This document shows, piece by piece, positions 3,118-58,993 of a stretch of 64,000 nucleotides of DNA. Source of the stretch: Candidatus Iainarchaeum sp. (GTDB lineage: Archaea; Iainarchaeota; Iainarchaeia; Iainarchaeales; JAXPJC01); NCBI GenBank assembly GCA_016187745.1, contig JACPJC010000005.1:32001-96000 (forward strand), given 5' to 3'. The position numbers were made by a program, and so were the translations under genes. The notes below the pieces were generated by a model. It saw only the letters and a list, made by a program, of their open reading frames with translations. It was not told the origin of the DNA and ran no database searches. Positions within the stretch are counted from its first letter, which is position 1; each line of letters starts with the position of its first letter.

Positions 3118-3157
3118 AGGTTTTTATAGCTATTCTTAATATTCATTCTGGCTATTT

Positions 3158-3373
3158 GTGGTTGATATGGAAAAGCTTACTAGATTTGAGGTTACAAGGC
3201 TCATTTCAGCAAGGGCGCTGCAGCTCTCCCTCGGGGCAAGCCCATTAATTGAGCAGGAAAAGGGCGTATCGCTGTACGAGCTTGCGAAACTTGAGCTTGA
3301 GAAGAAAGTGCTTCCGCTTGCGGTAATGCGCGCCTATCCCAACGGGGAAATAAGGCGCATAGATGTGAGCTGA
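3158..3373 (+). CDS. rpoK: RNA polymerase subunit Rpo6/K
   Basis: LTRFEVTRLISARALQLSLGA signature. Confidence 0.95.
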   Translation: MVDMEKLTRFEVTRLISARALQLSLGASPLIEQEKGVSLYELAKLELEKKVLPLAVMRAYPNGEIRRIDVS

Positions 3374-3390
3374 TTTTAGGGAGTGAAAAA

Positions 3391-3585
3391 ATGGGAAAGG
3401 CAGTTCCAAAAAACCTGAAATCGCGCGCGTCCATACTGATTAAGGAATTCCCCGACAAATTCACAATAGATTTTGACAAGAACAAGCAGTTCCTCAATTC
3501 ACTGCAGCTTCCATTCACAAACGAAGTAAGGAATCTCATTGCGGGTTACATAACAAGAAAGGTCAAGCAGAAGCACGCTTCATAA
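3391..3585 (+). CDS. rps17e: 30S ribosomal protein S17e
   Basis: FTIDFDKNK and RNLIAGYITR signatures. Confidence 0.95.
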   Translation: MGKAVPKNLKSRASILIKEFPDKFTIDFDKNKQFLNSLQLPFTNEVRNLIAGYITRKVKQKHAS

Positions 3586-3633
3586 ATCAGAAACCTTAGG
3601 TTTCCTCAAACTTCCTCTCTTCCAAAACATCCT

Positions 3634-5706
3634 TTATGCCGAAACTGCTTGCATAATGGGCTTTGTTATTCCATCCTCTTTTTTATCGCGCTCCATTATG
3701 TAAATGCGCGAAGTTGCTGCTTTCTCCATTTCCTTGTCATGGGTTATGATGAAAACCTGCTCCACGAATTCAGGCAGGTGCGCCTTAAGCATTTTGCTGA
3801 ATTCTTCCACGGCAAGCACATCAAGGTTGTGCGTTGGCTCATCCAGAATTATCCAGCTCAGGTTCTGCGCGAGAACGAGGGAAAGCGCAATCCTTATTGT
3901 TATTGCCGCAGCAGAGCGTTCCCCCCCGCTAAGGATTCCCTCAACCCTTGTCCAATTATTGCGCGCATCCCTCACCTTAATCTCATAATTCCCGTTTTCA
4001 ATGTCAATTTTTGCTGAATTGTAGTCCGCGTAGGGATAGACCTTCCCCCAGACGTTGTGCATTGCCTGGTTTATCGCATCAATCATAAGATTGCGCAGCT
4101 CCCCCTGGCTTGCCTTCAGCGCATTTGTGAATATGCTTAGCTTTTCCACAACAGCCTTCATGTTCCCGATGTCAGATTCCATAACCTTCATTTCATTTTT
4201 CATCCCCTCAATCTTCCCGATATTCGCCTTTATGCCCCCGATAATCTCATTATTGCTTTCCAGCTCCTTATGCAGTGACTCAATCCCTGAAGTTTCCCTC
4301 ACATATTCATTTCTCGCATTCCTCAGCAAGGATTCATTGAAATTGAGCTCGCGCATCTTCTTCTCAATTGCTTTCTGCTTCTCCGCTGAATTCTGCATTT
4401 CCCTGATATAATTTTCCATCTTTCCTGCCTTCTCCGCAAGATTCCTGAACTGCATCTCCTTCTCCCTTAATTCCTTCAATGAATTTTCCGCAGAGCTTTT
4501 TTCCTGCCTTAGTTTGCTTCTCTGCGCGCCTATCCTCCCAATTTCAGCTTCGCTCGCCTTCAGCTGCTTCTGCAGCAATTCAATATCCCTCTCATCTTCC
4601 GCAACCAGTGCGCGCTTGGTCTTTTCATCCAGCGCGGACTTGCATATCGGGCAGGAGGCCTTTGCGCCCCTAAGCTGCAGCAGGTTTTCCTGAATTTCAG
4701 CAATCCTGCTTTCATGCACCTTTGCCTTCTGCATTTCACTGCTTGCAAGCAGGTTGTTCTTCTCAAGCAGCTCATCGAATTTTTTCATTTCATCCTCAAA
4801 TTCAGCAAGCTTTTTCCTGCAGCCTTCCGCTTCCTTCCCAATGTCGCTTAATTTCCTTTTTCCAAGCTCTCCCTCAATCCCGGAGATTATCCCGGAAATC
4901 TCCTCCGCGCGGGCCTTTGCCTTGAGCAATTCCTCATTAAGCATGTCGTGCTTCTTTTCCATATCCTCAAGTTTTTCAACTTCAAGGCGCAGTTTTTCAG
5001 CAACGCCCTTTGATTTTTCAATCCTTTTACCCAGTTCTTTTCCATGCAGGGTTTTTTCATCCAGCCTTTTGTTCAGCTCCGCAAGCTCGGAATCGCTTAT
5101 CCTGTTTTTTTGTTCTGCAAGAAGTTTCTCCCTGTCCAGCGCCATTGCCTTTATCCTGTTCGCAAGCGCCCCGGCCTGCTCCCTCGCGTTCTCATATCTG
5201 TCTATCGCAAGCAGCTCATCAATCTTACCCTTCCTTTCGGAGGGATTCAGGCGCAGGAAAAAATCAATCTGGTTCTGCTCCGCATAAACCGCGCGGGAGA
5301 ACAGGTCAAAATTAATTCCCAGGATTTCCTCCACTCTCTCATTGACGTCGCTTACCTTCGGCCCTGCAAGGAAGTTTGAGTTCCTGTATATTTTTGCCTC
5401 ATTGGTCTTTCTGCCAGAGCTTTTTTGCAATATCCTTTCAATCCTGTAATTTTCATTCCTGTAATCAAACTCTATTGCAACCTTCGCAAAATCAGCGGAA
5501 GTCGGCTTTGACATTATCACCTCGTCCTGCGAAAGCCGCCTTGCAAGCAGCGCAGGGAACGTGCCAAATAATGCATAGCTTATGGCGTCCATAACGCTTG
5601 TTTTCCCGCTGCCCATCTTCCCTATAATCACATTCGTGCCCTTCCCAAATTCAAGCACGCTGTGCTTATGGCTCTTCCAGTTCTCAAGCTCCACAAGGGA
5701 AATCAT
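3634..5706 (-). CDS. Rad50/SbcC-like SMC ATPase
   Basis: Walker A GKMGSGKT, coiled coil with CPIC zinc hook, LSGGE signature, ILDEPT Walker B; start at MISLVELENWKSH. Confidence 0.88.
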   Translation of the reverse strand: MISLVELENWKSHKHSVLEFGKGTNVIIGKMGSGKTSVMDAISYALFGTFPALLARRLSQDEVIMSKPTSADFAKVAIEFDYRNENYRIERILQKSSGRKTNEAKIYRNSNFLAGPKVSDVNERVEEILGINFDLFSRAVYAEQNQIDFFLRLNPSERKGKIDELLAIDRYENAREQAGALANRIKAMALDREKLLAEQKNRISDSELAELNKRLDEKTLHGKELGKRIEKSKGVAEKLRLEVEKLEDMEKKHDMLNEELLKAKARAEEISGIISGIEGELGKRKLSDIGKEAEGCRKKLAEFEDEMKKFDELLEKNNLLASSEMQKAKVHESRIAEIQENLLQLRGAKASCPICKSALDEKTKRALVAEDERDIELLQKQLKASEAEIGRIGAQRSKLRQEKSSAENSLKELREKEMQFRNLAEKAGKMENYIREMQNSAEKQKAIEKKMRELNFNESLLRNARNEYVRETSGIESLHKELESNNEIIGGIKANIGKIEGMKNEMKVMESDIGNMKAVVEKLSIFTNALKASQGELRNLMIDAINQAMHNVWGKVYPYADYNSAKIDIENGNYEIKVRDARNNWTRVEGILSGGERSAAAITIRIALSLVLAQNLSWIILDEPTHNLDVLAVEEFSKMLKAHLPEFVEQVFIITHDKEMEKAATSRIYIMERDKKEDGITKPIMQAVSA

Positions 5707-47124: not shown

Positions 47125-48258
47125 ATGCCTCGCAACATATTTGAGAATGCAGCGCTTGAGGGCGCAATATTCAAGAATGAAAGTTATCTGTATCCGGAAT
47201 TCGTTCCCGAGCGCCTCCCGCACCGCGAGGCGCAGATTGATGCGCTTGTTTACTGCTTCTCCCCGATAGCAAAAGGCGCAAAGCCGCACAATGTCTTTGT
47301 CCATGGGAAAACCGGAACAGGGAAAACCGTAACAGTGAAATATGTGATGAATGAGCTGCAGGAGCACACTGACCGCGCGAAAGCGCTTTACATAAACTGC
47401 TTTGAGTTTTCCTCGCGCTCTTCTGTCCTTTCGGAAGTCGCAAACTTCATTGGCGCTGTTGTTCCAAGGCGCGGGCTCTCAACTGATGAGATATACTCAA
47501 AACTTCTTGAAAGCGCCAGGCGCCTGCAATTTACCCCCATAATCATCCTTGATGAGGCGGACCAGCTCTCAGTTCAGGGAAAGGAGGATGCCTCAAAGCT
47601 GCTTTACGATTTGCTGCGCATAATAGAATATGAAAAAATCCGCTTCGGGATTGCGCTCATTTCAAATTCCGGGGAATTCCTTGCAAAGCTTGATGCAAGA
47701 GTAAGGAGCTCCCTTGCCGAGGAGCGCATTGAATTCGAGCCCTATTCCCCCATTCAATTGAAGGAAATCCTGAGGGAGCGCGCGGAATTTGCATTCCTTC
47801 CAAATGCGCTTGAGAATGAGGTTATAAATGTCGCTGCGGCGCACGCTGCAAAATTGGGGGGAGACTGCAGGATTGCGATTGAAAGTTTATGGAAAGCGGG
47901 AAGGATTGCGGAAAAGGAGGGCGCAGGGAAACTCACATTAAAGCACCTGCGCAGCGCCTTTGAGCTTATTGAAAGCTCCCCGGGAAGAAAGCCCGCGAAT
48001 TTCCTTTCCGGAACAGAAAAGGCAATGCTCAAAATAATCCTGCAGGAAAAGCAGCTCAATTCAGGTGAACTGTTCAGGAAATACAATGAAAGCGCAGGGG
48101 AAAAGCTCAGCGAGAGGCGCCTGCGCGAAGTTGCAACCGGGCTTGAAAAAAAGCAGATAATTTCCTCAGAGGGAATAAACCTTCCGGAAAGGGGCAGGAC
48201 CCGGAGGATTTCGCTGAAGATTTCCCGGCGCGAGCTCGCGGAAAAATTAGGCAAATGA
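47125..48258 (+). CDS. cdc6: Orc1/Cdc6 replication initiator
   Basis: PERLPHRE, GKTGTGKT, YINC, ILDEAD, GDCRIAI and C-terminal wHTH. Confidence 0.95.
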   Translation: MPRNIFENAALEGAIFKNESYLYPEFVPERLPHREAQIDALVYCFSPIAKGAKPHNVFVHGKTGTGKTVTVKYVMNELQEHTDRAKALYINCFEFSSRSSVLSEVANFIGAVVPRRGLSTDEIYSKLLESARRLQFTPIIILDEADQLSVQGKEDASKLLYDLLRIIEYEKIRFGIALISNSGEFLAKLDARVRSSLAEERIEFEPYSPIQLKEILRERAEFAFLPNALENEVINVAAAHAAKLGGDCRIAIESLWKAGRIAEKEGAGKLTLKHLRSAFELIESSPGRKPANFLSGTEKAMLKIILQEKQLNSGELFRKYNESAGEKLSERRLREVATGLEKKQIISSEGINLPERGRTRRISLKISRRELAEKLGK

Positions 48259-49192: not shown

Positions 49193-49207
49193 AATATTTA
49201 ACTTTTT

Positions 49208-50167
49208 TTAAATCTGCGGCGCATAATAGATTTTTTCAGTTTTGAAAATAGTTATCCAGTTGAATTCTTTTATTATTTCAGGGAATTTCAGCCTTATTTC
49301 CCTCATCAGCTCATGGAATTCTCTTGGTGTTTGAAGCATTGCCTCAAACTCAAGATCAGAAATGCCAATTGCCTCTGTTACAAACATTACATTCATTTTG
49401 GATTTAAGGAAAGAAATAAGTTGCAGATATTTTTCTGCAGAAAGGTCCTGCAACTGCATGAAGACCTTATACCATGTGTATCCGATTTTTGAATAATCCA
49501 AAACAACCATGTACCCCAGAATGACTTTGTTTCTTTCAAGCCTTTTTATCCTATACTTTACAGTCTTGTCTGATATGCCAAGCTTTTTTCCCATTTCAAC
49601 AAGCGAGGCCCTGCTGTTTTTTGCCAATATGCTAAGAATTCTGCCGTCAATAGAATCTATTTCAAAGTGCGAGAACCTTTGCTCCATCATCAGCTCATGC
49701 AAAGAGGTTTCTTTTGTGAGATATCTATGGGAGATATGGTGCGCCCTCACAATAAAGGAAATATCAACTGTTTTGAGAAACTTCCCAAACTTAAATTTCA
49801 ATGTCTTTATTGCGCCATCAAGCTCAAGCATATCTCTTGACCAGAAAATTATTAAAAGATCATATGCGCCATCAAGCCTTGTGACCCAGCCAACATCGTG
49901 CATCTTCAAAGCAAATTTAATGATGTCATCTTCATTATAGCTGCCTTGCAGCTTTATCCAAAGCCTTGCACTCTGCCTCTGAAGCTTGAAAACATCAATT
50001 ACTGCATAGTATCCAAGAATTATTTTGTTGTACTCAAGTTTTTCAAGTCGCTGCTTTACTGCCTGCTTTGAGAGCCTTACTTTTTTAGCTAAAGCTGAAA
50101 TGGGCTGTCTTGAGTCTTTGTCCAGTTCAGCCAATAGTTTTCTGTCTATCAAGTCTAGCTTATACAT
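49208..50167 (-). CDS. Tandem (double) Lrp/AsnC regulator
   Basis: LDLIDRKLLAELDKDSR and IDSIDGRILSILAKNSR, each followed by a RAM domain. Confidence 0.92.
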   Translation of the reverse strand: MYKLDLIDRKLLAELDKDSRQPISALAKKVRLSKQAVKQRLEKLEYNKIILGYYAVIDVFKLQRQSARLWIKLQGSYNEDDIIKFALKMHDVGWVTRLDGAYDLLIIFWSRDMLELDGAIKTLKFKFGKFLKTVDISFIVRAHHISHRYLTKETSLHELMMEQRFSHFEIDSIDGRILSILAKNSRASLVEMGKKLGISDKTVKYRIKRLERNKVILGYMVVLDYSKIGYTWYKVFMQLQDLSAEKYLQLISFLKSKMNVMFVTEAIGISDLEFEAMLQTPREFHELMREIRLKFPEIIKEFNWITIFKTEKIYYAPQI

Positions 50168-50230
50168 ATATTGACAATTGTAAAAAAATATTAATAAATC
50201 TTTCTATTAGTTCTGTAAAATAATAGGAAT

Positions 50231-50242
50231 TCTTATAAATCA
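50231..50242 (+). promoter_or_regulatory. TATA box for the small-ORF/radical SAM operon
   Basis: ttataaat at 50233-50240, about 30 nt upstream of ggtgga-ata-ATG (50272). Confidence 0.5.
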
Positions 50243-50271
50243 GAATGAAGGAAGATGTGTATGGTGGAATA

Positions 50272-50391
50272 ATGAATAAATGGTTAAAATCCTTGACAAA
50301 AGAGAGAATAGAAAAAGATGTGAGAGGCGAACGCTGCTCATCTCCGCTTGAAAGGCAGTTGAGGGGCGGGCATGATTGCCCCTATCCTTAA
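50272..50391 (+). CDS. Small ORF A, 39 aa, putative RiPP precursor
   Basis: MNKWLKSLTKERIEKDVRGERCSSPLERQLRGGHDCPYP*; SD-like ggtgga; alternative in-frame ATG at 50245. Confidence 0.55.
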   Translation: MNKWLKSLTKERIEKDVRGERCSSPLERQLRGGHDCPYP

Positions 50392-50400
50392 GGTATGCGT

Positions 50401-50511
50401 ATGCAAGAGAAAAATCCTTGGTTGCTTAAAAGGCGCAGAGAAAGGCAAAAAGAATCAATACAAAAGCGCTATGCCTCGGCATCCGACCAATGCAGGCTTC
50501 ATACGATTTGA
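50401..50511 (+). CDS. Small ORF B, 36 aa, putative RiPP precursor
   Basis: MQEKNPWLLKRRRERQKESIQKRYASASDQCRLHTI*; aaggt upstream; alternative ATG at 50395. Confidence 0.55.
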   Translation: MQEKNPWLLKRRRERQKESIQKRYASASDQCRLHTI

Positions 50512-50535
50512 CTACAAAACTCCCGGCTGATTTAA

Positions 50536-52125
50536 ATGCAGATTCAACTAGTTAGGCTTAGAGACGCAAGGACAAATGATGTGTTGCATTTCCCAAAGGT
50601 GGAAAGCCTGGCCCTTGGCTATCTGGCTGGCTTTTTGAAGAGTAAGGGGCTTGAGGCAGAAATCATTGATGAAGAAGTTATGGGTTTGCAAAGGAAGCAA
50701 ACAATTGAAAGCCTCCAATGCAATAGCGACATAATTGCCTTTACAGCAATTGCAAAATCACAAATCTATTCCATACTTGAAGTGATTAAAGAGTTGAAAA
50801 AGAATGGAAATAAAGCACACATAACTATCGGCGGCCAATTTGCAACCTTTCTTTTCAGGGAGCTCCTTTCCCTTGAGAATAAATTTGATTCCGTTGTTCT
50901 ATATGAGGGCGAGGAAACGCTTTTTGAGCTTGCAAATGCCCTTAATAATGAATTTGATTTGGGCTCCATTAAGGGCTTGGCATTTAAAACTTTCAATGGA
51001 CAAATAAAGCAAAATCCTTTAAGGCCTTTAATCTGCAATTTGGATTCACTCCCATTTCCTGCAAGGGATACTTTGCCTAAAGTTATTGAAAATGGCGGCT
51101 TGCCCATTATATCTTCCAGCAGGGGCTGCTATAATCGCTGCTCTTATTGCTCAATAAGCCAGTTTTATTCAGGGCCCGGAGGAAGTGCATTTCGCTACAG
51201 AAGCGCTGGGAATGTCTTGGCAGAATTGAAGCATTTGAAAGAGGAATTTCCCGAAATTAGCGATATTTGGTTTGTTGATGATAATTTTGTTGTTCCTGGA
51301 AAAAAGGGCTTGGAAAGAACAGCAAAGCTTTGCAGAGGGATAAAAGATTTGGATTTGGGAGTTGACCTTAATATTTATCTCAGGGCAAATCAAATCAATG
51401 GAAGGCTCTTGAAGTTATTGGATGAATGCAGTGTCAGGTCTATTTTCATCGGCGCTGAGGCAGGAACAAATTATACATTGCAGCAAATTTTCAAAAAGAA
51501 CCTATCAATTGAACAAACAAAAAGGGCAATAAAATTATGCGGCCAGAGGGGAATAAATGTTGACCCCGGCTTCATAATGTTCCACCCGTGGAGTACACTT
51601 AAAGAAATTGAAAGCAATATTCGCTTTTTGGAGGAGATTGGTCAATTTACCCTGTATGGGATTGTAAGCTTTTTGACTGCTTATAAATTCACGCCGATTG
51701 GAAAGGAAATGCTTTCGGGGGAAAGAACATACAAAAAACCCATTTTCAAATCAAAAGAGCTTATTCAAGATACAGTGCCATATGAAATAGCCGATGAAAA
51801 AGCAGAGGTGCTGCTCTGCCTAACTTTGAAGGCATTTGAAGAATTCCACAAACTGCCTGAGCAATTTGCAAAATTAAAGCAGGAAATAAGGAAGATTAGG
51901 TCAATCAATAAGGAAAAAGCAATGGCACTAGATAAAGAATGGACTATTAGGGTTAATGCGATGAATAGGCAGGGAATGGCTTTCTTTAAAGAGCTATTCA
52001 GATTCATTAAAAAGGCAGATTTAAATGACAAATCAATAAAGCCGTTCTTTGGGCATTTCAAATTAAAGATAAGAAGCTATGTTGCGAAAGAATCAGGAGA
52101 AATAGAAAATTTGACCAAGAATTAA
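50536..52125 (+). CDS. Cobalamin-dependent radical SAM enzyme
   Basis: SLALGYLAGFL, IGGQFAT, YEGEET, LDSLPFPAR, SRGCYNRCSYC, FVDDNF, FIGAEAG. Confidence 0.93.
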   Translation: MQIQLVRLRDARTNDVLHFPKVESLALGYLAGFLKSKGLEAEIIDEEVMGLQRKQTIESLQCNSDIIAFTAIAKSQIYSILEVIKELKKNGNKAHITIGGQFATFLFRELLSLENKFDSVVLYEGEETLFELANALNNEFDLGSIKGLAFKTFNGQIKQNPLRPLICNLDSLPFPARDTLPKVIENGGLPIISSSRGCYNRCSYCSISQFYSGPGGSAFRYRSAGNVLAELKHLKEEFPEISDIWFVDDNFVVPGKKGLERTAKLCRGIKDLDLGVDLNIYLRANQINGRLLKLLDECSVRSIFIGAEAGTNYTLQQIFKKNLSIEQTKRAIKLCGQRGINVDPGFIMFHPWSTLKEIESNIRFLEEIGQFTLYGIVSFLTAYKFTPIGKEMLSGERTYKKPIFKSKELIQDTVPYEIADEKAEVLLCLTLKAFEEFHKLPEQFAKLKQEIRKIRSINKEKAMALDKEWTIRVNAMNRQGMAFFKELFRFIKKADLNDKSIKPFFGHFKLKIRSYVAKESGEIENLTKN

Positions 52126-53315
52126 TGGTTCAGCTGTATTTTCACAATGTCATTGCTCTTCAGCGCGTGCTCTTTTCCAAGCTTCATTCCGCTCCTGCAG
52201 TCAACTGCAGCAACAAACCTCTTTATGAAATCGCTGTGTATTTCCCCCGCGAGATCAAGCGCTGTTGCGCCTTTTTTTAGGAGATAAGCATCCGGTAAAT
52301 AATGCCCCTTTCCCGAAAGCATTTTGTGCTGGTCCTCCACGGGATAAACAACCATAAGCTCCAGCAAATTGAATGCGGTTTCATTTATCGCTTCCTGAAC
52401 TCCGGTTCCGCCCCACACATCCAATATGTTTTTCTGTATGAACTCAAGTGCCTTTTTCTGCTTCTCATCAATTTCTTTAAGCACACTGAATTCCTTCGCC
52501 CCGGGAACATATTCTATTGCGCCATTTCTTGCTGCCCTGCGCAATGCAAGTTCAGCTTCCGCACAGCAGGGAACAATTTTCTTCCCCGGCAATTGCGCGC
52601 GCAATTTCTCATAATTCTCCCTGGATTCAGGCAAATCAATTTTATTTGCTGCAATCAACATCGGCTTGCTTTTTTTCCTTATATCCCCGGAAAAGCGCAG
52701 AATCTCATCCTCATTCCAATTGTCAGGCCTTTCGCCGAAGTTCCCCTCCTTAATTACCTCCTTCACATTCTCCTCGGAAATTCCCAATCCGCTCAATTGC
52801 TTCGCAAGCGTTGGCGCAGCGCCCTTGGAATCCATCGCTGCCTGCTTGCTTAGCTTCTGCCAGCTCTCCATCAGAATTCCCCTAATCCAGTAGGAAATTT
52901 CCCTTTCAAGGAATTCAACATCCAGCGCAGGATCCCTTCCCTTTGTAGGATTTCCCTCCGCATCAGTCCTTCCGGAAACATCCAGCACGTGAATCAATGC
53001 GCGCGCCTGCATTATGTCCCCCAAAAACCTGTTCCCAAGCCCCTTCCCCTGCCACGCATCAGGCACAAGCCCAGCAACATCATAAAGCGTAATGGGTATT
53101 TCCCTTATCCCATTAATGCATTTTGAGTTCTGCGGCTGGCATTCCCCCTTTTCAAAATCAGTGTGCGCGCATTTTGCTGTTACGTATCCAATCCCCTGAT
53201 TCGGCTTTATTGTAACAAATGGCCTGTTTGATATTTCAACATCAACAAGCGTTGCCGCGCTGAAGAAGGAAGATTTCCCAGTGTTTGTTTTTCCAACGAT
53301 CCCTATCTGCATCAT
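52122..53315 (-). CDS. ychF: YchF/Ola1-like Obg-family NTPase
   Basis: GKTNTGKS, PFVTIKPN, DVAGLVP, ANKID and C-terminal TGS domain. Confidence 0.93.
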   Translation of the reverse strand: MMQIGIVGKTNTGKSSFFSAATLVDVEISNRPFVTIKPNQGIGYVTAKCAHTDFEKGECQPQNSKCINGIREIPITLYDVAGLVPDAWQGKGLGNRFLGDIMQARALIHVLDVSGRTDAEGNPTKGRDPALDVEFLEREISYWIRGILMESWQKLSKQAAMDSKGAAPTLAKQLSGLGISEENVKEVIKEGNFGERPDNWNEDEILRFSGDIRKKSKPMLIAANKIDLPESRENYEKLRAQLPGKKIVPCCAEAELALRRAARNGAIEYVPGAKEFSVLKEIDEKQKKALEFIQKNILDVWGGTGVQEAINETAFNLLELMVVYPVEDQHKMLSGKGHYLPDAYLLKKGATALDLAGEIHSDFIKRFVAAVDCRSGMKLGKEHALKSNDIVKIQLNH

Positions 53316-53766: not shown

Positions 53767-55152
53767 ATGCCCGAACTCTGGACTGACAAGTATTTTCCGA
53801 AAAGCCTTTCCGAGTTCATAGGCAATTCCGAAATAGTTGGAACAATTGATAAATGGGCGAATGGATGGAATTCAGGAAAGCAGGGAAAGCCCCTCCTCCT
53901 TTACGGCCAGACAGGCTCCGGGAAAACAGCGCTTGCGCACCTTATTGCGCGCATAAACGGCTGGCAGATTTTTGAATTGAATGCAAGCGATTTCCGCACA
54001 AAGGAAATAATTGAAAGGCTTGCTGGCGCTGCAGCATTGAACGCTTCCTTCAGCGGAAAGCCGCGCCTTGTTCTCCTTGATGAGATTGATGGCCTGCAGT
54101 CAAGCGACAAGGGGGGTGCGGCAGCAATTGTAAATGTGCTGAAGCAGTCCCAGAATCCTGTAATGCTTACGGCAAATGAGATTTATTCCGAAAAAAAGCT
54201 CGCGCCAATCCGCGCTGTTTGCACTCCGCTGGAATTCAGGAAAATAAATTACCTCTCAATCGCGAATTACCTTAAAAAAATCTGCAATGCCAATGCGCTT
54301 GCATATGAGGATTTGGCGCTTGCGGAAATTGCAAAGAACTGCTCCGGGGACCTGCGCTCCGCGCTTCTTGATTTGCAGACCCTTGCAATCAGCTCCGAGC
54401 GCATTACGCTTCAGGAGGTTTCAACCCTCTCCTACAGGGAAAGGCAGGAAAAAATATTCTCAATCCTCGCAAAGGTATTCAATGCGCAGAGCATAAGCGA
54501 GGCGAGAAGCGCGAGATTCTCAAGTGAAGTGGACACTGAAATGCTCCAGAACTGGATTGAGGAGAACATTCCCAGAGCTTATGCAGATGCCAATGACATC
54601 GCCTCGGCATACCGGATGCTGAGCAGGGCTGACATTTACGAGGGAAGGATAAGGAAAAGGCAGCACTACGGCTTCTTGAAATATTCCTCCGAGCTTGCAA
54701 CAAGCGGGGTCGCTCTTTCAAAATCCCAAAAAATCGCTTCCTATGTCCGATATGAGTTTCCGCAATTCCTCAAGAAGCTGAGTGCGGGCTCCTCCCAAAA
54801 GGCCCTGCGCAAAAGCCTTTCCGGGAAAATGGCGGAGCAGATGCACTCCGGCATTAAGGGCATAATCCGCGAGGATTTAACTTACATAAAGATGCTTTTT
54901 GAGAACAAGGCAAATGCGATAAATCTGGCTGCGCAGTTTGATTTTGATGCCGAGGAAGTCGCCTTCCTTCTCAGCACAAAGCCCGAAACAAAGAAAGTGC
55001 AGGCAATAATCGGGGAGGCGCAGAAAATCAGGGGCAGGCACGCAGTGCCGGGAAAGCAATTAATGCAGGAATCCGGGATTGCAGAACCCGCGCATGAGCA
55101 GGAAGAAATTCCAAAGCCGGTTGCGGAAAGCGGCCAGAGGAAATTATTTTAA
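53767..55152 (+). CDS. rfcL: Replication factor C large subunit
   Basis: WTDKYFP, GQTGSGKT, ELNASDFR, WIEENIP and C-terminal PIP box QRKLF. Confidence 0.95.
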   Translation: MPELWTDKYFPKSLSEFIGNSEIVGTIDKWANGWNSGKQGKPLLLYGQTGSGKTALAHLIARINGWQIFELNASDFRTKEIIERLAGAAALNASFSGKPRLVLLDEIDGLQSSDKGGAAAIVNVLKQSQNPVMLTANEIYSEKKLAPIRAVCTPLEFRKINYLSIANYLKKICNANALAYEDLALAEIAKNCSGDLRSALLDLQTLAISSERITLQEVSTLSYRERQEKIFSILAKVFNAQSISEARSARFSSEVDTEMLQNWIEENIPRAYADANDIASAYRMLSRADIYEGRIRKRQHYGFLKYSSELATSGVALSKSQKIASYVRYEFPQFLKKLSAGSSQKALRKSLSGKMAEQMHSGIKGIIREDLTYIKMLFENKANAINLAAQFDFDAEEVAFLLSTKPETKKVQAIIGEAQKIRGRHAVPGKQLMQESGIAEPAHEQEEIPKPVAESGQRKLF

Positions 55153-55886: not shown

Positions 55887-57527
55887 CTAAATTTCGAATT
55901 CAAGCACAGCAACAGGCGCATCAATGAGGAAATTTTTCAGGACTTTCTCGCCCACTTCCCCGAGGATTCCGCATTTTCCCAATGCAACAATCTCCGCAGC
56001 CCTTCCCTCCGCAAAGCTTGGGTGCTTCATTGCGCGCGTTTCGTATTTTATTCCAAGGTTCTGCAAAAGCGCATTCAAATGCGACTTTATTTCAGTAAAA
56101 TTCGCGTTCTTGTGCGAAATTGCAATGCACACCTGCGTGCGCTCCTTAACTCCCGTTTCAGCGCTTGCATCAAGCGCAAGCGTCCTTCCAATCTCGAATA
56201 TTTTCTGCGGATAGGGGCAGTTCTTGTTTTTTGACAAAAATTCAAGCAGCTCAGGAACAACGCTCCTGCGCAATACGCTCCAGTTGGTTGAAACAGGGTT
56301 TGCGATTTCCACAAACTGCTGCTCTGGGAGTTCCATCATCCTCTGCTGCTTTTCCTTTGAGGTTAGGGTAAAGGTAAGGACTTCCTGCAGCCCAAGCCCG
56401 ACACAAACTTCCCTGCAGGCATTTTCAATCCTGTTGTTCTGCAGCTCATTCCCGATTGTTGCGATTTTCACTTCCGCAGGCGCAATTTTCTCATATCCGT
56501 ATGCAATAATAATGTCTTCAATCACGTCTATCGGATGCAGGATATCCTGGCGGTATGCGGGATACTCCGCAATAATTTTCTTTCCCTTTGCAGCCGCATC
56601 ATAGTGCGCATTTCTGAGGAGTTTTACAATATCTGCGGCGCCCAGCTCCAACCCGCTGATTTTCTGCACATCTGAAACATCAACTGAAATTTTTCCCGGA
56701 GTGAAATCCGGAGTTGTAATCCTGCTTTTCGGATAAACTATCTGCACGGATTCAATTTTTGCATTCCTCTCGGCAAGCGCGCTTGCAATTACATTCAGCG
56801 CGGTATTAACAGTTTCCTGCCTCATTCCCGTAACTTCCACAAACAAATTGCGGGTTTTTTCAGTTACTTTTCCCGTTGCCTGGGAATTTATTATGGGAGG
56901 CATTGATGCAACAACATCCGCGCTGTCAATCAGTATGGGATATTTCTTGCAGCCCTGGAGCAAATGCGCATATTCCTTCCCCTTCGGATGCTCCTTCAGG
57001 ATTTCGTCCAAATCCATCTCAACTCTGTATTCCAGGGGAACGAACTTCAATTCATGCGGGGCAAACGCCTTGTAATGGATTGGCGCCTTCATCGCATCAA
57101 AATCATACAAGCCGATTGCAGCCTCTTTGCGCTTTCTTCCAAATGTTAAGCAGACCTTCTCCTGCAGCTGCACCATCTGCTTGATGAAATTTCCATCCAC
57201 CTTTACATTCCTCGCAATTGCGGCAGCAATGCAGGGCCTTACCGCGGAAACGGAGGCATCAGCAATTACCTTCACTCCGCTTGATTTCACATCATATTTC
57301 GCAAGCCCTTTTTCCTTTCCCAGATGCCCCTTCAATTCCCTTGCAATTCCCTCCGCAGAGAGCAGATCCGGCCTGTTGGTTTCCTTCACATCAACAACAA
57401 TTTCATTCCCATCAACAGAATCGATTTCCCCCTTTACAAAAAGCAGCGCTTCCCTCACCCGCTCAAGGCTCAGCTTCTTCCCCACAAGCGCGCCCAAATC
57501 ATTCAGGTTAATTTCAACGTTTGGCAT
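55887..57527 (-). CDS. pheT: Phenylalanyl-tRNA synthetase beta subunit
   Basis: NRPDLLSAEG, SMPPIINS, YRQDILHPIDVIEDIIIAYGY. Confidence 0.96.
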   Translation of the reverse strand: MPNVEINLNDLGALVGKKLSLERVREALLFVKGEIDSVDGNEIVVDVKETNRPDLLSAEGIARELKGHLGKEKGLAKYDVKSSGVKVIADASVSAVRPCIAAAIARNVKVDGNFIKQMVQLQEKVCLTFGRKRKEAAIGLYDFDAMKAPIHYKAFAPHELKFVPLEYRVEMDLDEILKEHPKGKEYAHLLQGCKKYPILIDSADVVASMPPIINSQATGKVTEKTRNLFVEVTGMRQETVNTALNVIASALAERNAKIESVQIVYPKSRITTPDFTPGKISVDVSDVQKISGLELGAADIVKLLRNAHYDAAAKGKKIIAEYPAYRQDILHPIDVIEDIIIAYGYEKIAPAEVKIATIGNELQNNRIENACREVCVGLGLQEVLTFTLTSKEKQQRMMELPEQQFVEIANPVSTNWSVLRRSVVPELLEFLSKNKNCPYPQKIFEIGRTLALDASAETGVKERTQVCIAISHKNANFTEIKSHLNALLQNLGIKYETRAMKHPSFAEGRAAEIVALGKCGILGEVGEKVLKNFLIDAPVAVLEFEI

Positions 57528-58993
57528 TATTGCACCACCGCGCATTTCCTGAGCCAGCCCAAATCATCCGAGAACAGATAGCGCACGTCCTTTATGTTCA
57601 GTTTGAACATCGCAAGCCTGTCAATCCCTATCCCCCATGCAAGCGCAGGCTCCTTGATTCCAAGGGGCAGCATCATTTCCGGCCTGAAAATTCCCGCGCC
57701 CGCAAATTCAATCCATCCCAATTCAGGATGCTTTGCGCTCAATTGAACTGAAGGCTCCGTGAATGGATAATAATCAGGAAGGAATTTCACTTCCTCCGCG
57801 CCCGCAATTTCCACTGCGAACTGCTTCAGCATCCCCAGAAGATGCCTGAAATTGAATGATTTATCAACAACAAACCCCTCTAATTGGTTGAATTCAATTA
57901 AGTGTGTAGCGTCAACAACATCAGGCCTGTAGCAGCGCGCAATTGCGAAATATTTTCCCGGAATTTCAATACCTTTTACCAATTGCCTTGCGCTGTGCGC
58001 GGTTCCGTGCGCTGAAGGCATGAGCCTTTTTGCAATTTCCTCATTCCATTTGTACTGCCATCCACTGCTTCCCGTATTTCCTCCGTTCTCATGCGCTGCC
58101 TTTACCCCTGAAACAATTCTCGCATCCGGAAGCTTCCCGAATTTCGGCTGTTTTAACTGATAAGTATCAGACCAAGAACGCGCAGGATGCCCCTGCGGCT
58201 GGAAAAGAGCATCAAAATTATAGAACTCCTGCGTTATCAATGGCGCAGGCATTTCCTTGAATCCCAGCGCAACTAACTTATTGCGGATATTCCCCAAAAA
58301 CTGCACATAGGGCTGTTTCTTTCCCAGAAGAATTTCAGGAACCCCAGCATCAACAACATATTTTCTCTCAGTGAACTTTTCAGCAAACGCAAGCGCCTCA
58401 AGCCCAAGCTCATTTATCCTCGCGCTCCTCTCAATTATCTGCTTCCTTTCCACAAACCCGCGCCTGATAAGCTCATTCAGGCCTTCATTTTCAGCTTCGC
58501 TTAATTTCTCATTCTCCCCAATTTTTCCAAGCGCAATTTCGCTTGCATATTTCCCCTGCAATAAATCCTTCTCAAGCCCAGTAAGTTCCAGAACAAGCTC
58601 ATTCCCCTCCTTGTGCAGCGAAACCCAGGCATTGCGCTTTGCAATTCCCAGCACAAAATCGCTTTCCTTTCCCAGATTCGCATTTTTCTGGATCTCAATC
58701 AGCCTTTCCTTTCCCCCGGCCTTATGTATTGCCTCAATTGCCCTTTTCTCCGGCAGGCCCTTCTGCAGCGCCTCCTTCCCCGAAGTAGTCAATGAAATGT
58801 GCATTTTTGCGCTTTCAATCAAATCAACAAGCGCCTTCTCCTTCAGCCACATTATTGCCCTGCGCGCGGAATCTATGTTCATGCCTGCGGAATTTGCAAT
58901 CTGCCCAGCATTTTTTAGCCGCCCGTCCCTAAGCGCAATTAGGGAATTTCTTTCAATCTCGCTCAGCGCCTGAGCGGTTTCCTCGATTTTCAT
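57527..58993 (-). CDS. pheS: Phenylalanyl-tRNA synthetase alpha subunit
   Basis: NFDALFQPQGHPAR, THLIEFNQLEG, YYPFTEPS, GAGIFRPE. Confidence 0.97.
   Translation of the reverse strand: MKIEETAQALSEIERNSLIALRDGRLKNAGQIANSAGMNIDSARRAIMWLKEKALVDLIESAKMHISLTTSGKEALQKGLPEKRAIEAIHKAGGKERLIEIQKNANLGKESDFVLGIAKRNAWVSLHKEGNELVLELTGLEKDLLQGKYASEIALGKIGENEKLSEAENEGLNELIRRGFVERKQIIERSARINELGLEALAFAEKFTERKYVVDAGVPEILLGKKQPYVQFLGNIRNKLVALGFKEMPAPLITQEFYNFDALFQPQGHPARSWSDTYQLKQPKFGKLPDARIVSGVKAAHENGGNTGSSGWQYKWNEEIAKRLMPSAHGTAHSARQLVKGIEIPGKYFAIARCYRPDVVDATHLIEFNQLEGFVVDKSFNFRHLLGMLKQFAVEIAGAEEVKFLPDYYPFTEPSVQLSAKHPELGWIEFAGAGIFRPEMMLPLGIKEPALAWGIGIDRLAMFKLNIKDVRYLFSDDLGWLRKCAVVQ

Follow-up and report, generated by a model that had tools for sequence, protein, structure and literature searches.

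A putative three-part cassette of a double-Lrp protein, small leader-core peptides and a B12-binding radical SAM enzyme in Candidatus Iainarchaeum sp.

The DNA analysed here, called the window below, is a stretch of 64,000 nucleotides from Candidatus Iainarchaeum sp. (GenBank assembly GCA_016187745.1, contig JACPJC010000005.1, positions 32,001 to 96,000 of the forward strand), and coordinates are those of the window unless a contig or locus is named. Positions 49208 to 52125 hold a fused double-Lrp gene on the minus strand, a gap of 368 bp (50168-50535) and, on the plus strand, the gene of a cobalamin (B12)-binding radical S-adenosylmethionine (SAM) enzyme. An earlier note, made from the letters of this DNA, had placed two small open reading frames (ORFs), A and B, in the gap and had proposed that they encode substrates of the enzyme, i.e., the precursors of a ribosomally synthesised peptide that is modified after translation (RiPP). 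The locus contains the following features.

49208-50167, minus strand: fused double Lrp/AsnC-type protein of 319 residues, divergent from the peptide operon; assigned by Pfam, AlphaFold2 (AF2) model and Foldseek.
50168-50271, no strand: divergent control region, AT-rich and conserved, containing the palindrome ACAATTGT, TATA-like boxes in both directions and the Shine-Dalgarno (SD) motif GGTGG before ORF A.
50272-50391, plus strand: ORF A, 39 residues; leader of the family (W-L...E-R), variant 'class ii' core containing Cys and an extension of 14 residues.
50401-50511, plus strand: ORF B, 36 residues, the universal member of the family; leader at residues 4-17, core K22-D29 at 50464-50487.
50536-52125, plus strand: class B (B12-binding) radical SAM enzyme of 529 residues; assigned by Pfam, the invariant CxxxCxxC and the AF2 fold.
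About 50602-50931, plus strand: B12 domain of the enzyme (Pfam).
About 51109-51630, plus strand: radical SAM core, with CxxxCxxC at 51127-51150.
About 51796-52119, plus strand: C-terminal three-helix bundle of the enzyme, the predicted docking site of the leader.

Both small ORFs were found where the earlier note had put them. The longest forms in the ORF list cover 50245-50391 (48 residues) and 50395-50511 (38 residues), and the internal ATG codons at 50272 and 50401 give the peptides of 39 and 36 residues exactly as quoted before. The spacing given for the enzyme gene was also correct, 24 nt separating the end of the ORF B stop codon (50511) from its ATG. GGTGG lies just 5' of the ATG of ORF A and AGGT 5' of that of ORF B, while TTATAAAT is located about 30 nt upstream of ORF A within a non-coding block kept in all eight aligned loci; these are the TATA box and SD-like elements that had been described ahead of the ORFs. 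The motif N-x-W-L-x5-E-R, which had been proposed as the common leader motif, occurs in both peptides (residues 2-12 of A and 5-15 of B). Of this motif, the wider family keeps W-[ILMFV] and [K/E]-R-[Q] alone, and not the Asn. When a loose leader pattern was run over all six frames of the 0.96-Mb genome, only nine small ORFs (20-60 residues) fitted it, and A and B were the sole neighbouring pair among them.

The DNA around homologues of the enzyme was collected from contigs of one genome per species and from metagenome contigs, which gave 164 loci. About 25 close relatives share 47-64% identity with the enzyme and are unnamed or generically named. A six-frame scan detected the core of peptide B in 14 of the 164 loci, and these are 14 of the 15 loci whose enzyme is at least 47% identical to that of the window. 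The exception, L086, starts at residue 192 of the enzyme and has no upstream DNA. The core was absent from the six-frame translations of all 149 loci with more distant B12-binding radical SAM homologues. Small ORFs upstream of homologous enzymes, whose lack had been named beforehand as an outcome that speaks against a peptide substrate, thus accompany the close relatives and none of the others. In 0.9 kb upstream of 11 distant loci (32-35% identity; L028-L030 and L092-L099) there was no such peptide, and methyltransferase-like or ABC-ATPase-like ORFs were seen instead, so that the pairing is restricted to the archaeal clade. Bacterial enzymes of 33-35% identity (L028, L092 and L093, about 3120-3980, and also L029 and L097) directly follow an ORF resembling a SAM methyltransferase or an ABC ATPase, and are probably part of another pathway that does not involve peptides.

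The same association was seen in 215 genomes of the phylum. An orthologue of the enzyme (E at most 1e-90) is present in eight of them, namely in the window's own family, in one of nine genomes of family f2 and in six of 23 genomes of family f21. A degenerate DNA pattern for K-R-[H/Y]-A-S-A-[S/T]-D matched once in each of seven genomes, always 49-117 nt upstream of the enzyme orthologue. No match was obtained in the 207 genomes without the orthologue, and a reversed control pattern gave none. The eighth genome (L022) has two variant cores, with V for A and N for D. An orthologue of the double-Lrp protein (52-81% identity, E at most 3.5e-108) occurs in the same eight genomes, in agreement with the Lrp linkage of the earlier note, and the next best matches are paralogues of at most 36% identity. 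In two of the eight it is on another contig because the contig of the enzyme ends in the intergenic region. All 11 loci with enough upstream DNA carry a divergent double-Lrp gene, although at the loci with a long peptide form (L088-L091) the protein is only 27-28% identical to that of the window (L088-L090; the copy of L091 is cut). The enzyme (15 loci) and this gene (11 of 11) are the only conserved neighbours of the peptides. The cassette is patchy within the phylum (8 of 215 genomes), and its GC content of 0.36-0.41 over 49200-52200, compared with 0.43-0.54 in the flanks, bears out the AT-rich block that had been noticed between housekeeping genes.

The coding signal was assessed from the codons. 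The 15 copies of the core use TCG, TCT, TCA, TCC, AGC and AGT for Ser, CGC, AGG and AGA for Arg, and all four codons for Ala, and a residue that is kept across unrelated codon families indicates selection on the protein and not on the DNA or RNA. The intergenic spans gave 23 leader-like matches, and each of them falls within an intact ORF that has an ATG at most 12 codons upstream. An SD-like motif (GGTG, GAGG or AGGT) stands before 16 of the 21 starts of units but before only 6 of 58 other ATG codons in the same spans, L021 being omitted from this count as too near to a contig end; the Fisher p value of 4e-8 overstates the enrichment because the loci are related. Strains were compared using L085 (about 94% identical) and the contigs of four runs. 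The 49 nt before ORF A (50220-50268) contain 13-14 variable sites and are the most variable part of the control region, while the 120 nt of ORF A show only 1-3 changes, two of them synonymous and one a change of the start codon from ATG to GTG. ORF B shows K4E, P6S and I20T together with synonymous changes, and its core is unchanged. Of 20 runs listed as containing this stretch, none was of RNA. The small ORFs are under selection at the protein level, and the coding-type conservation that the earlier note had made a test of its proposal is present.

An element of DNA or RNA that is open by chance, such as regulator sites or a structured 5' leader, would be the alternative to genes. The region is flanked by a regulator gene and the gene that it likely controls, a conserved non-coding block lies within the gap, and the nucleotides of ORF A are more conserved among strains than the synonymous sites of the enzyme gene predict. 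However, the switches between TCN and AGY for Ser and between CGN and AGR for Arg change two or three bases and keep the amino acid, and neither the intact ORFs around every leader-like match nor the enriched SD-like motifs would be expected of such an element. No Rfam family matched 50100-50600 at E up to 1. We therefore regard this alternative as very unlikely, and for ORF B it is nearly refuted.

The members of the peptide family have a common architecture. Short forms of 28-36 residues carry the leader W-[ILMFV]-x5-8-[K/E]-R-Q-x-K, and long forms of 56-76 residues have an extended N-terminus and the same core. At all loci with upstream sequence the last small ORF before the enzyme ends with K-R-[H/Y]-A-S-A-[S/T]-D-[H], followed by 0-8 residues. 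In an alignment of 14 peptides the residues R, A and S of the core do not vary, and K and D of the core and Q of the leader are present in at least 90%. The loci contain one to five tandem units with a common leader and three recurring types of core. Five units were counted in L022 (1244-1722), four each in L026 (3181-3635) and L027 (3575-3946), three in L087 (3531-3924) and two in the window. Several non-terminal ORFs of these arrays end with AGG-TGA, which doubles as the SD motif of the next ORF. The second type of C-terminus is G-G-[G/C]-[F/C/R]-[C/S]-[S/A]-[N/Q/S]-[L/C], and the third is [P/A]-[A/S]-D-M-[P/S]-x-R or G-M-A/P-P-L. ORF A aligns with the Cys-containing type but continues for 14 residues, and among the loci examined this tail occurs only in the window and in its 95% strain L085. 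GACATGCC, which belongs to one core type, resembles AGACATGCC and, read in another frame, the codons for R-H-A in the universal core; this is suggestive of 'class iii' cores being frame-shifted duplicates of the B unit.

The end of ORF A had been compared to a double-glycine cleavage site in the earlier note. It has R-G-G and then a short tail, which recalls the bacteriocins with a double-glycine leader and with exporters of the ATP-binding cassette (ABC) type that carry a C39 peptidase. This reading was rejected. In related peptides, unlike in those bacteriocins, the two glycines lie inside the conserved C-terminal core (G-G-[G/C]-[F/C]-C-S-N-L, then stop), the stop codon follows 4-6 residues later, and the neighbourhood has no conserved C39 peptidase or ABC exporter.

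When 5.8 billion proteins were searched with a profile of the family, 19 small proteins of 32-67 residues were obtained, all of which have the core; they are named 'hypothetical' at most and are without a Pfam domain. For seven of them the longest contig equals in length that of an orthologue of the enzyme, which suggests that they come from the same contigs. A HMMER scan of 1.84 billion representatives gave ten matches, of which eight were small proteins with the core. The other two, long repeat proteins of 1055 and 1577 residues, match only the part of the long leader and were set aside. With only eight true small members among 1.84 billion representatives the family is rare. The profile of the Cys-containing 'class ii' type retrieved from the 5.8 billion proteins only the ORF of the window or its near strain, a result that says little since ORFs so short are rarely called as genes. 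Neither Pfam nor NCBIfam has a family that matches A, B or the three longer relatives scanned. The only other match to the core in the host genome is partial, lacks the Arg and lies in a frame of 1826 codons; because no other full core exists in this genome, mimicry of part of a larger protein was rejected. A known defence system was rejected as well, since the PADLOC hits were all weak and generic (29 bits for the radical SAM enzyme, and a helix-turn-helix likeness of the Lrp protein to Csa3/CasR).

The enzyme was assigned by domain and by fold. Pfam recognised a B12-binding domain (PF02310) at residues 23-132 with 52.5 bits (cut-off 32.1) and Radical_SAM at residues 192-365 with 61.5 bits (cut-off 29.5), and all 25 aligned orthologues have C198, C202 and C205 of the CxxxCxxC motif. 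The AF2 model had a predicted local distance difference test (pLDDT) score of 90.4 and ends in three helices at 421-455, 459-493 and 498-528. Its nearest solved fold is OxsB (query-normalised TM-score 0.73, 19% identity), followed by TsrM and then by MgmA, CysS, TokK and AprD4. The sequence and the model thus point to a class B fold with a Rossmann-type B12 domain that is predicted to bind cobalamin. A PqqD-like RiPP recognition element (RRE) was not detected by Pfam in the five proteins scanned; the enzyme has only the B12-binding and Radical_SAM domains, and the neighbour has helix-turn-helix families.

The enzyme was co-folded with peptide B, each with its own alignment and with SAM and a 4Fe-4S cluster included. 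The ipSAE interface score was 0.82, 0.83 and 0.82, whereas the best of three controls reached 0.02. Of 80 solved complexes 58 attained this mark, as did 2 of 110 mismatched pairs; the calibration is only rough here because custom alignments and ligands were used. The runs agreed in at least 46% of contacts, and the pLDDT of the partner was at least 56. Confident contacts connect residues 4-8 and 11-17 of peptide B, i.e., the W-L and E-R-Q positions of the leader, with residues 402-432 and 496-502 of the enzyme. The docking positions include the conserved E417, E424, L427, L429, L431 and L496, and the conservation of the interface residues was 0.70 compared with 0.53 in the rest of the C-terminal part. 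Recall of a known complex is an unlikely source of this result, because OxsB, the nearest solved relative, is only 19% identical and its title names no peptide partner. The leader is thus predicted to bind to the C-terminal helix bundle of the enzyme, and the co-folding check suggested by the earlier note, with its pointer to the helical C-terminus, was passed.

The small ORFs could also be regulatory upstream ORFs (uORFs), that is, leader or arrest peptides that tune the expression of the radical SAM gene, e.g., to a metabolite. They are on the same strand and directly upstream, with 24 nt between ORF B and the enzyme gene in the window and with the core 49-117 nt before it elsewhere, and genes for further processing are lacking downstream. 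Arrest peptides typically have a conserved C-terminal peptide motif, as these peptides do. Against this stands the conserved N-terminal motif, for which binding to the enzyme is predicted with a score far above the controls. The long forms of 56-76 residues retain the same core, several different cores occur in tandem, and both the tail (0-8 residues) and the distance to the enzyme gene vary, which suggests no fixed geometry for stalling or coupling. Regulation by uORFs is accordingly quite improbable in our estimation.

The divergent protein contains two stretches of the HTH_AsnC type (Pfam, E 6.7e-26). Its AF2 model (pLDDT 83.6) consists of two halves, each with a winged helix-turn-helix and a RAM domain. 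With the whole chain the top hit of Foldseek was the fused enzyme NirDL (query-normalised TM-score 0.60, 14% identity), a likeness in architecture only. Next came Lrp/AsnC regulators, which each half matched with target-normalised TM-scores of 0.77-0.86 and 20-28% identity. The first approximately 90 nt of the gap beside the Lrp gene contain 33 invariant columns in the eight aligned loci, among them T-T-x-A-C-x-x-T-T-G-x-A-A-A-A-A. This conserved block, which has the palindrome and TATA-like boxes for both directions, is in keeping with a common operator and promoter. The simplest reading is that the double-Lrp protein is likely the regulator of the cassette, with putative DNA binding, and it may also bind the peptide or its product. 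Fused double-Lrp/AsnC proteins of about 320-350 residues are expanded in the phylum; at E up to 1e-30, 69 of the 215 genomes have them, and a single genome has as many as nine matches. On contig C1 (158597-161148) of the same assembly, a paralogue of the B12-binding radical SAM enzyme on the minus strand and a double-Lrp paralogue on the plus strand, which is 32% identical to that of the window, are separated by 95 bp, and the pairing of the two proteins may be a wider theme in the phylum.

Taken together, these genes likely form a self-contained cassette of three parts, the double-Lrp protein, one or more precursor peptides and the B12-type radical SAM enzyme, which would make a ribosomally synthesised, enzyme-modified peptide. 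The RiPP-like reading of A, B and the enzyme in the earlier note is supported in this form, having come through the comparative test that the note itself had proposed. In the course of events that we infer for the modification of the core, its chemistry, its regulation and the fate of the product, the peptides would be the first cistrons of an operon with a conserved divergent promoter, which the double-Lrp protein probably controls. The amphipathic, basic N-terminal leader would dock as a helix on the conserved and partly acidic C-terminal bundle of the enzyme, with no PqqD-like RRE involved. Docking would present the C-terminal core to the [4Fe-4S]/SAM/cobalamin site for radical modification; this core is K-R-[H/Y]-A-S-A-[S/T]-D-H in B, the universal peptide, and contains Cys in A. 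The commonest chemistry of this enzyme class is C-methylation.

Several results weigh against such a cassette. The 95-bp gap of the paralogous pair on contig C1 holds no small ORFs, so that linkage to an Lrp gene does not require peptides. Conserved genes for a leader peptidase, an exporter, immunity or a second tailoring enzyme are missing from the 15 loci, which is unusual for secreted RiPPs; the earlier note had likewise seen no adjacent peptidase, transporter or RRE. The enzyme reached no NCBIfam cut-off, and the RiPP family ApyD (NF050148; 119.1 bits, cut-off 750) is tied with the hopanoid family HpnJ (TIGR03471; 119.1 bits, cut-off 577.6), while the RiPP C-methyltransferase subfamily TIGR03975 scored 45.8 bits (cut-off 281.85). 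With this tie at 119 bits, similarity by itself does not tell a peptide substrate from another one. The bacterial homologues of 33-35% identity, which have no upstream peptide at 11 loci, align into or through the C-terminal part (up to residues 486-528 of the query). Since they and OxsB align there too, the helix bundle alone is no signature of peptide binding. The additional classes of core were compared mostly among close genomes (Lrp proteins 77-81% identical), and their conservation is therefore weaker evidence. Finally, the predicted contacts involve the leader only, and the core was not placed confidently in the active site.

The last of these points would also suit peptides that bind the enzyme without being its substrates, as accessory subunits or regulators (activator, inhibitor, chaperone or substrate mimic), while the true substrate is a small molecule, a lipid, a glycan or another protein. 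The absence of a conserved protease or exporter is in line with this. The 11 other B12-binding radical SAM matches of the genome look non-peptidic, ten of them lying in a cluster on contig C2 that looks, by ORF content, to be of the glycan type, and the NCBIfam similarity of the enzyme to HpnJ, BchE and PhpK is as high as that to ApyD. Accessory peptides would, however, leave the one to five tandem copies with one leader and several conserved cores unexplained. Conservation within the family is highest in the C-terminal core, which is not used for binding in the model, and no protein of the host genome carries a full core that the peptide could mimic. We consider this explanation rather unlikely and prefer the peptides as substrates.

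Modification of peptides by radical SAM enzymes, including those of the B12 type, is already known. PoyB and PoyC of the polytheonamides and the enzymes of bottromycin and thiopeptide formation are C-methyltransferases of RiPP pathways. Like these and like ApyD and rSAM_ocin_1 (TIGR03975), the enzyme of the window is a class B radical SAM protein beside short precursors with leader and core, and ApyD is its best NCBIfam hit, yet far below the cut-off. Unlike those pathways, the cassette has no other tailoring enzyme, protease or exporter, its peptides are without a Pfam or NCBIfam family, and its host belongs to the DPANN archaea.

OxsB of oxetanocin biosynthesis (PDB 5ul2-5ul4) is the nearest solved protein both by profile (E 1e-34) and by fold, and TsrM (6wte) matched with TM-scores of 0.58-0.60 (query-normalised). 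Both share the Rossmann B12 domain and the radical SAM barrel with the enzyme, and OxsB aligns over most of its length; they differ in that their identity to it is only 19-20% and that they are not encoded with a peptide. Judged by the titles of their depositions and the literature, OxsB and TsrM act on small molecules. MgmA, the glutamine methylase of methyl-coenzyme M reductase (PDB 9ccb, TIGR04014), was a fold hit with a query-normalised TM-score of 0.56 and a family hit with 74 bits (cut-off 360). MgmA and Mmp10 are also archaeal class B radical SAM enzymes and modify sp3 carbons of polypeptide residues, but their substrate is a large enzyme subunit without a dedicated leader peptide, and no context of methanogenesis was seen here.

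Pyrroloquinoline quinone (PQQ; PqqA/D/E) and mycofactocin (MftA/B/C) come, as here, from compact and self-contained gene clusters. In each, a radical SAM enzyme processes a short peptide whose C-terminal motif is conserved, and no exporter is needed. Their enzymes are of the SPASM type and need a PqqD-like RRE and further enzymes, whereas the present enzyme is of the B12 type, Pfam detected no PqqD domain in the five proteins scanned, and docking on a helix bundle is predicted.

The peptide family, its pairing with this clade of enzymes and with the double-Lrp protein, the apparent absence of an RRE and the DPANN host are absent from the libraries checked. Titles and abstracts of the literature gave no description of this peptide family or of a radical SAM RiPP from Iainarchaeota or DPANN archaea, although supplements of mining studies could list such clusters. 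In the portion of its text that was available, a metagenome survey reports that no biosynthetic gene clusters were detected in its ten Iainarchaeota genomes (PMC9902471). The cassette is apparently the first case of radical SAM-dependent peptide maturation from DPANN archaea.

A bolder version, possible but doubtful in our view, is that of a new RiPP class, the first in DPANN archaea, encoded by a horizontally mobile three-gene cassette. Its leader would be read by a helix bundle without an RRE, the R-[H/Y]-A-S-A-[S/T]-D core of a peptide of about 30 residues would become an intracellular, cofactor-like or signalling product, and the double-Lrp protein would sense or chaperone this product, all in a genome of about 1 Mb whose cobalamin must be imported, the host or the community being the presumed source.

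With their tiny genomes, DPANN archaea are commonly regarded as metabolically stripped. If the cassette works as proposed, the phylum would have a dedicated modified peptide that could serve as cofactor, signal or weapon in a host-dependent lifestyle. It would also offer a compact test case for enzymology, with one class B radical SAM enzyme of 529 residues, natural substrates of about 30 residues, three types of core and a leader dock other than an RRE. All parts fit into about 3 kb and could be tested directly by co-expression.

The cassette is packed tightly between convergent neighbours, and its flanks consist of housekeeping genes (ORFs 47125-48258, 52122-53315, 53767-55152 and 55887-57545). 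Pfam identified an Orc1/Cdc6-type AAA+ protein and a YchF/Obg-like GTPase, and the gene of the latter, on the opposite strand, ends 4 nt inside the end of the radical SAM gene. The next two ORFs resemble an RFC-like AAA+ protein and the beta subunit of Phe-tRNA synthetase, by the appearance of their translations only.

The host genome has a size of 0.96 Mb in ten contigs and is 91% complete. No Pfam match to CobS (PF02654) or CobD/CbiB (PF03186) was obtained in it, and with neither detectable, cobalamin would need to be imported; the need for external B12 assumed in the earlier note is therefore plausible. The genome contains 12 B12-binding radical SAM matches, many for this size and for a genome without detectable genes of cobalamin synthesis. 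Outside the window, contig C2 carries at about 4.5-64.5 kb what looks from the starts of its ORFs like a large cluster of the surface-glycan type. Its ORFs resemble glycosyltransferases, sugar epimerases or dehydrogenases and flippases, and 10 of the 12 matches are interspersed among them.

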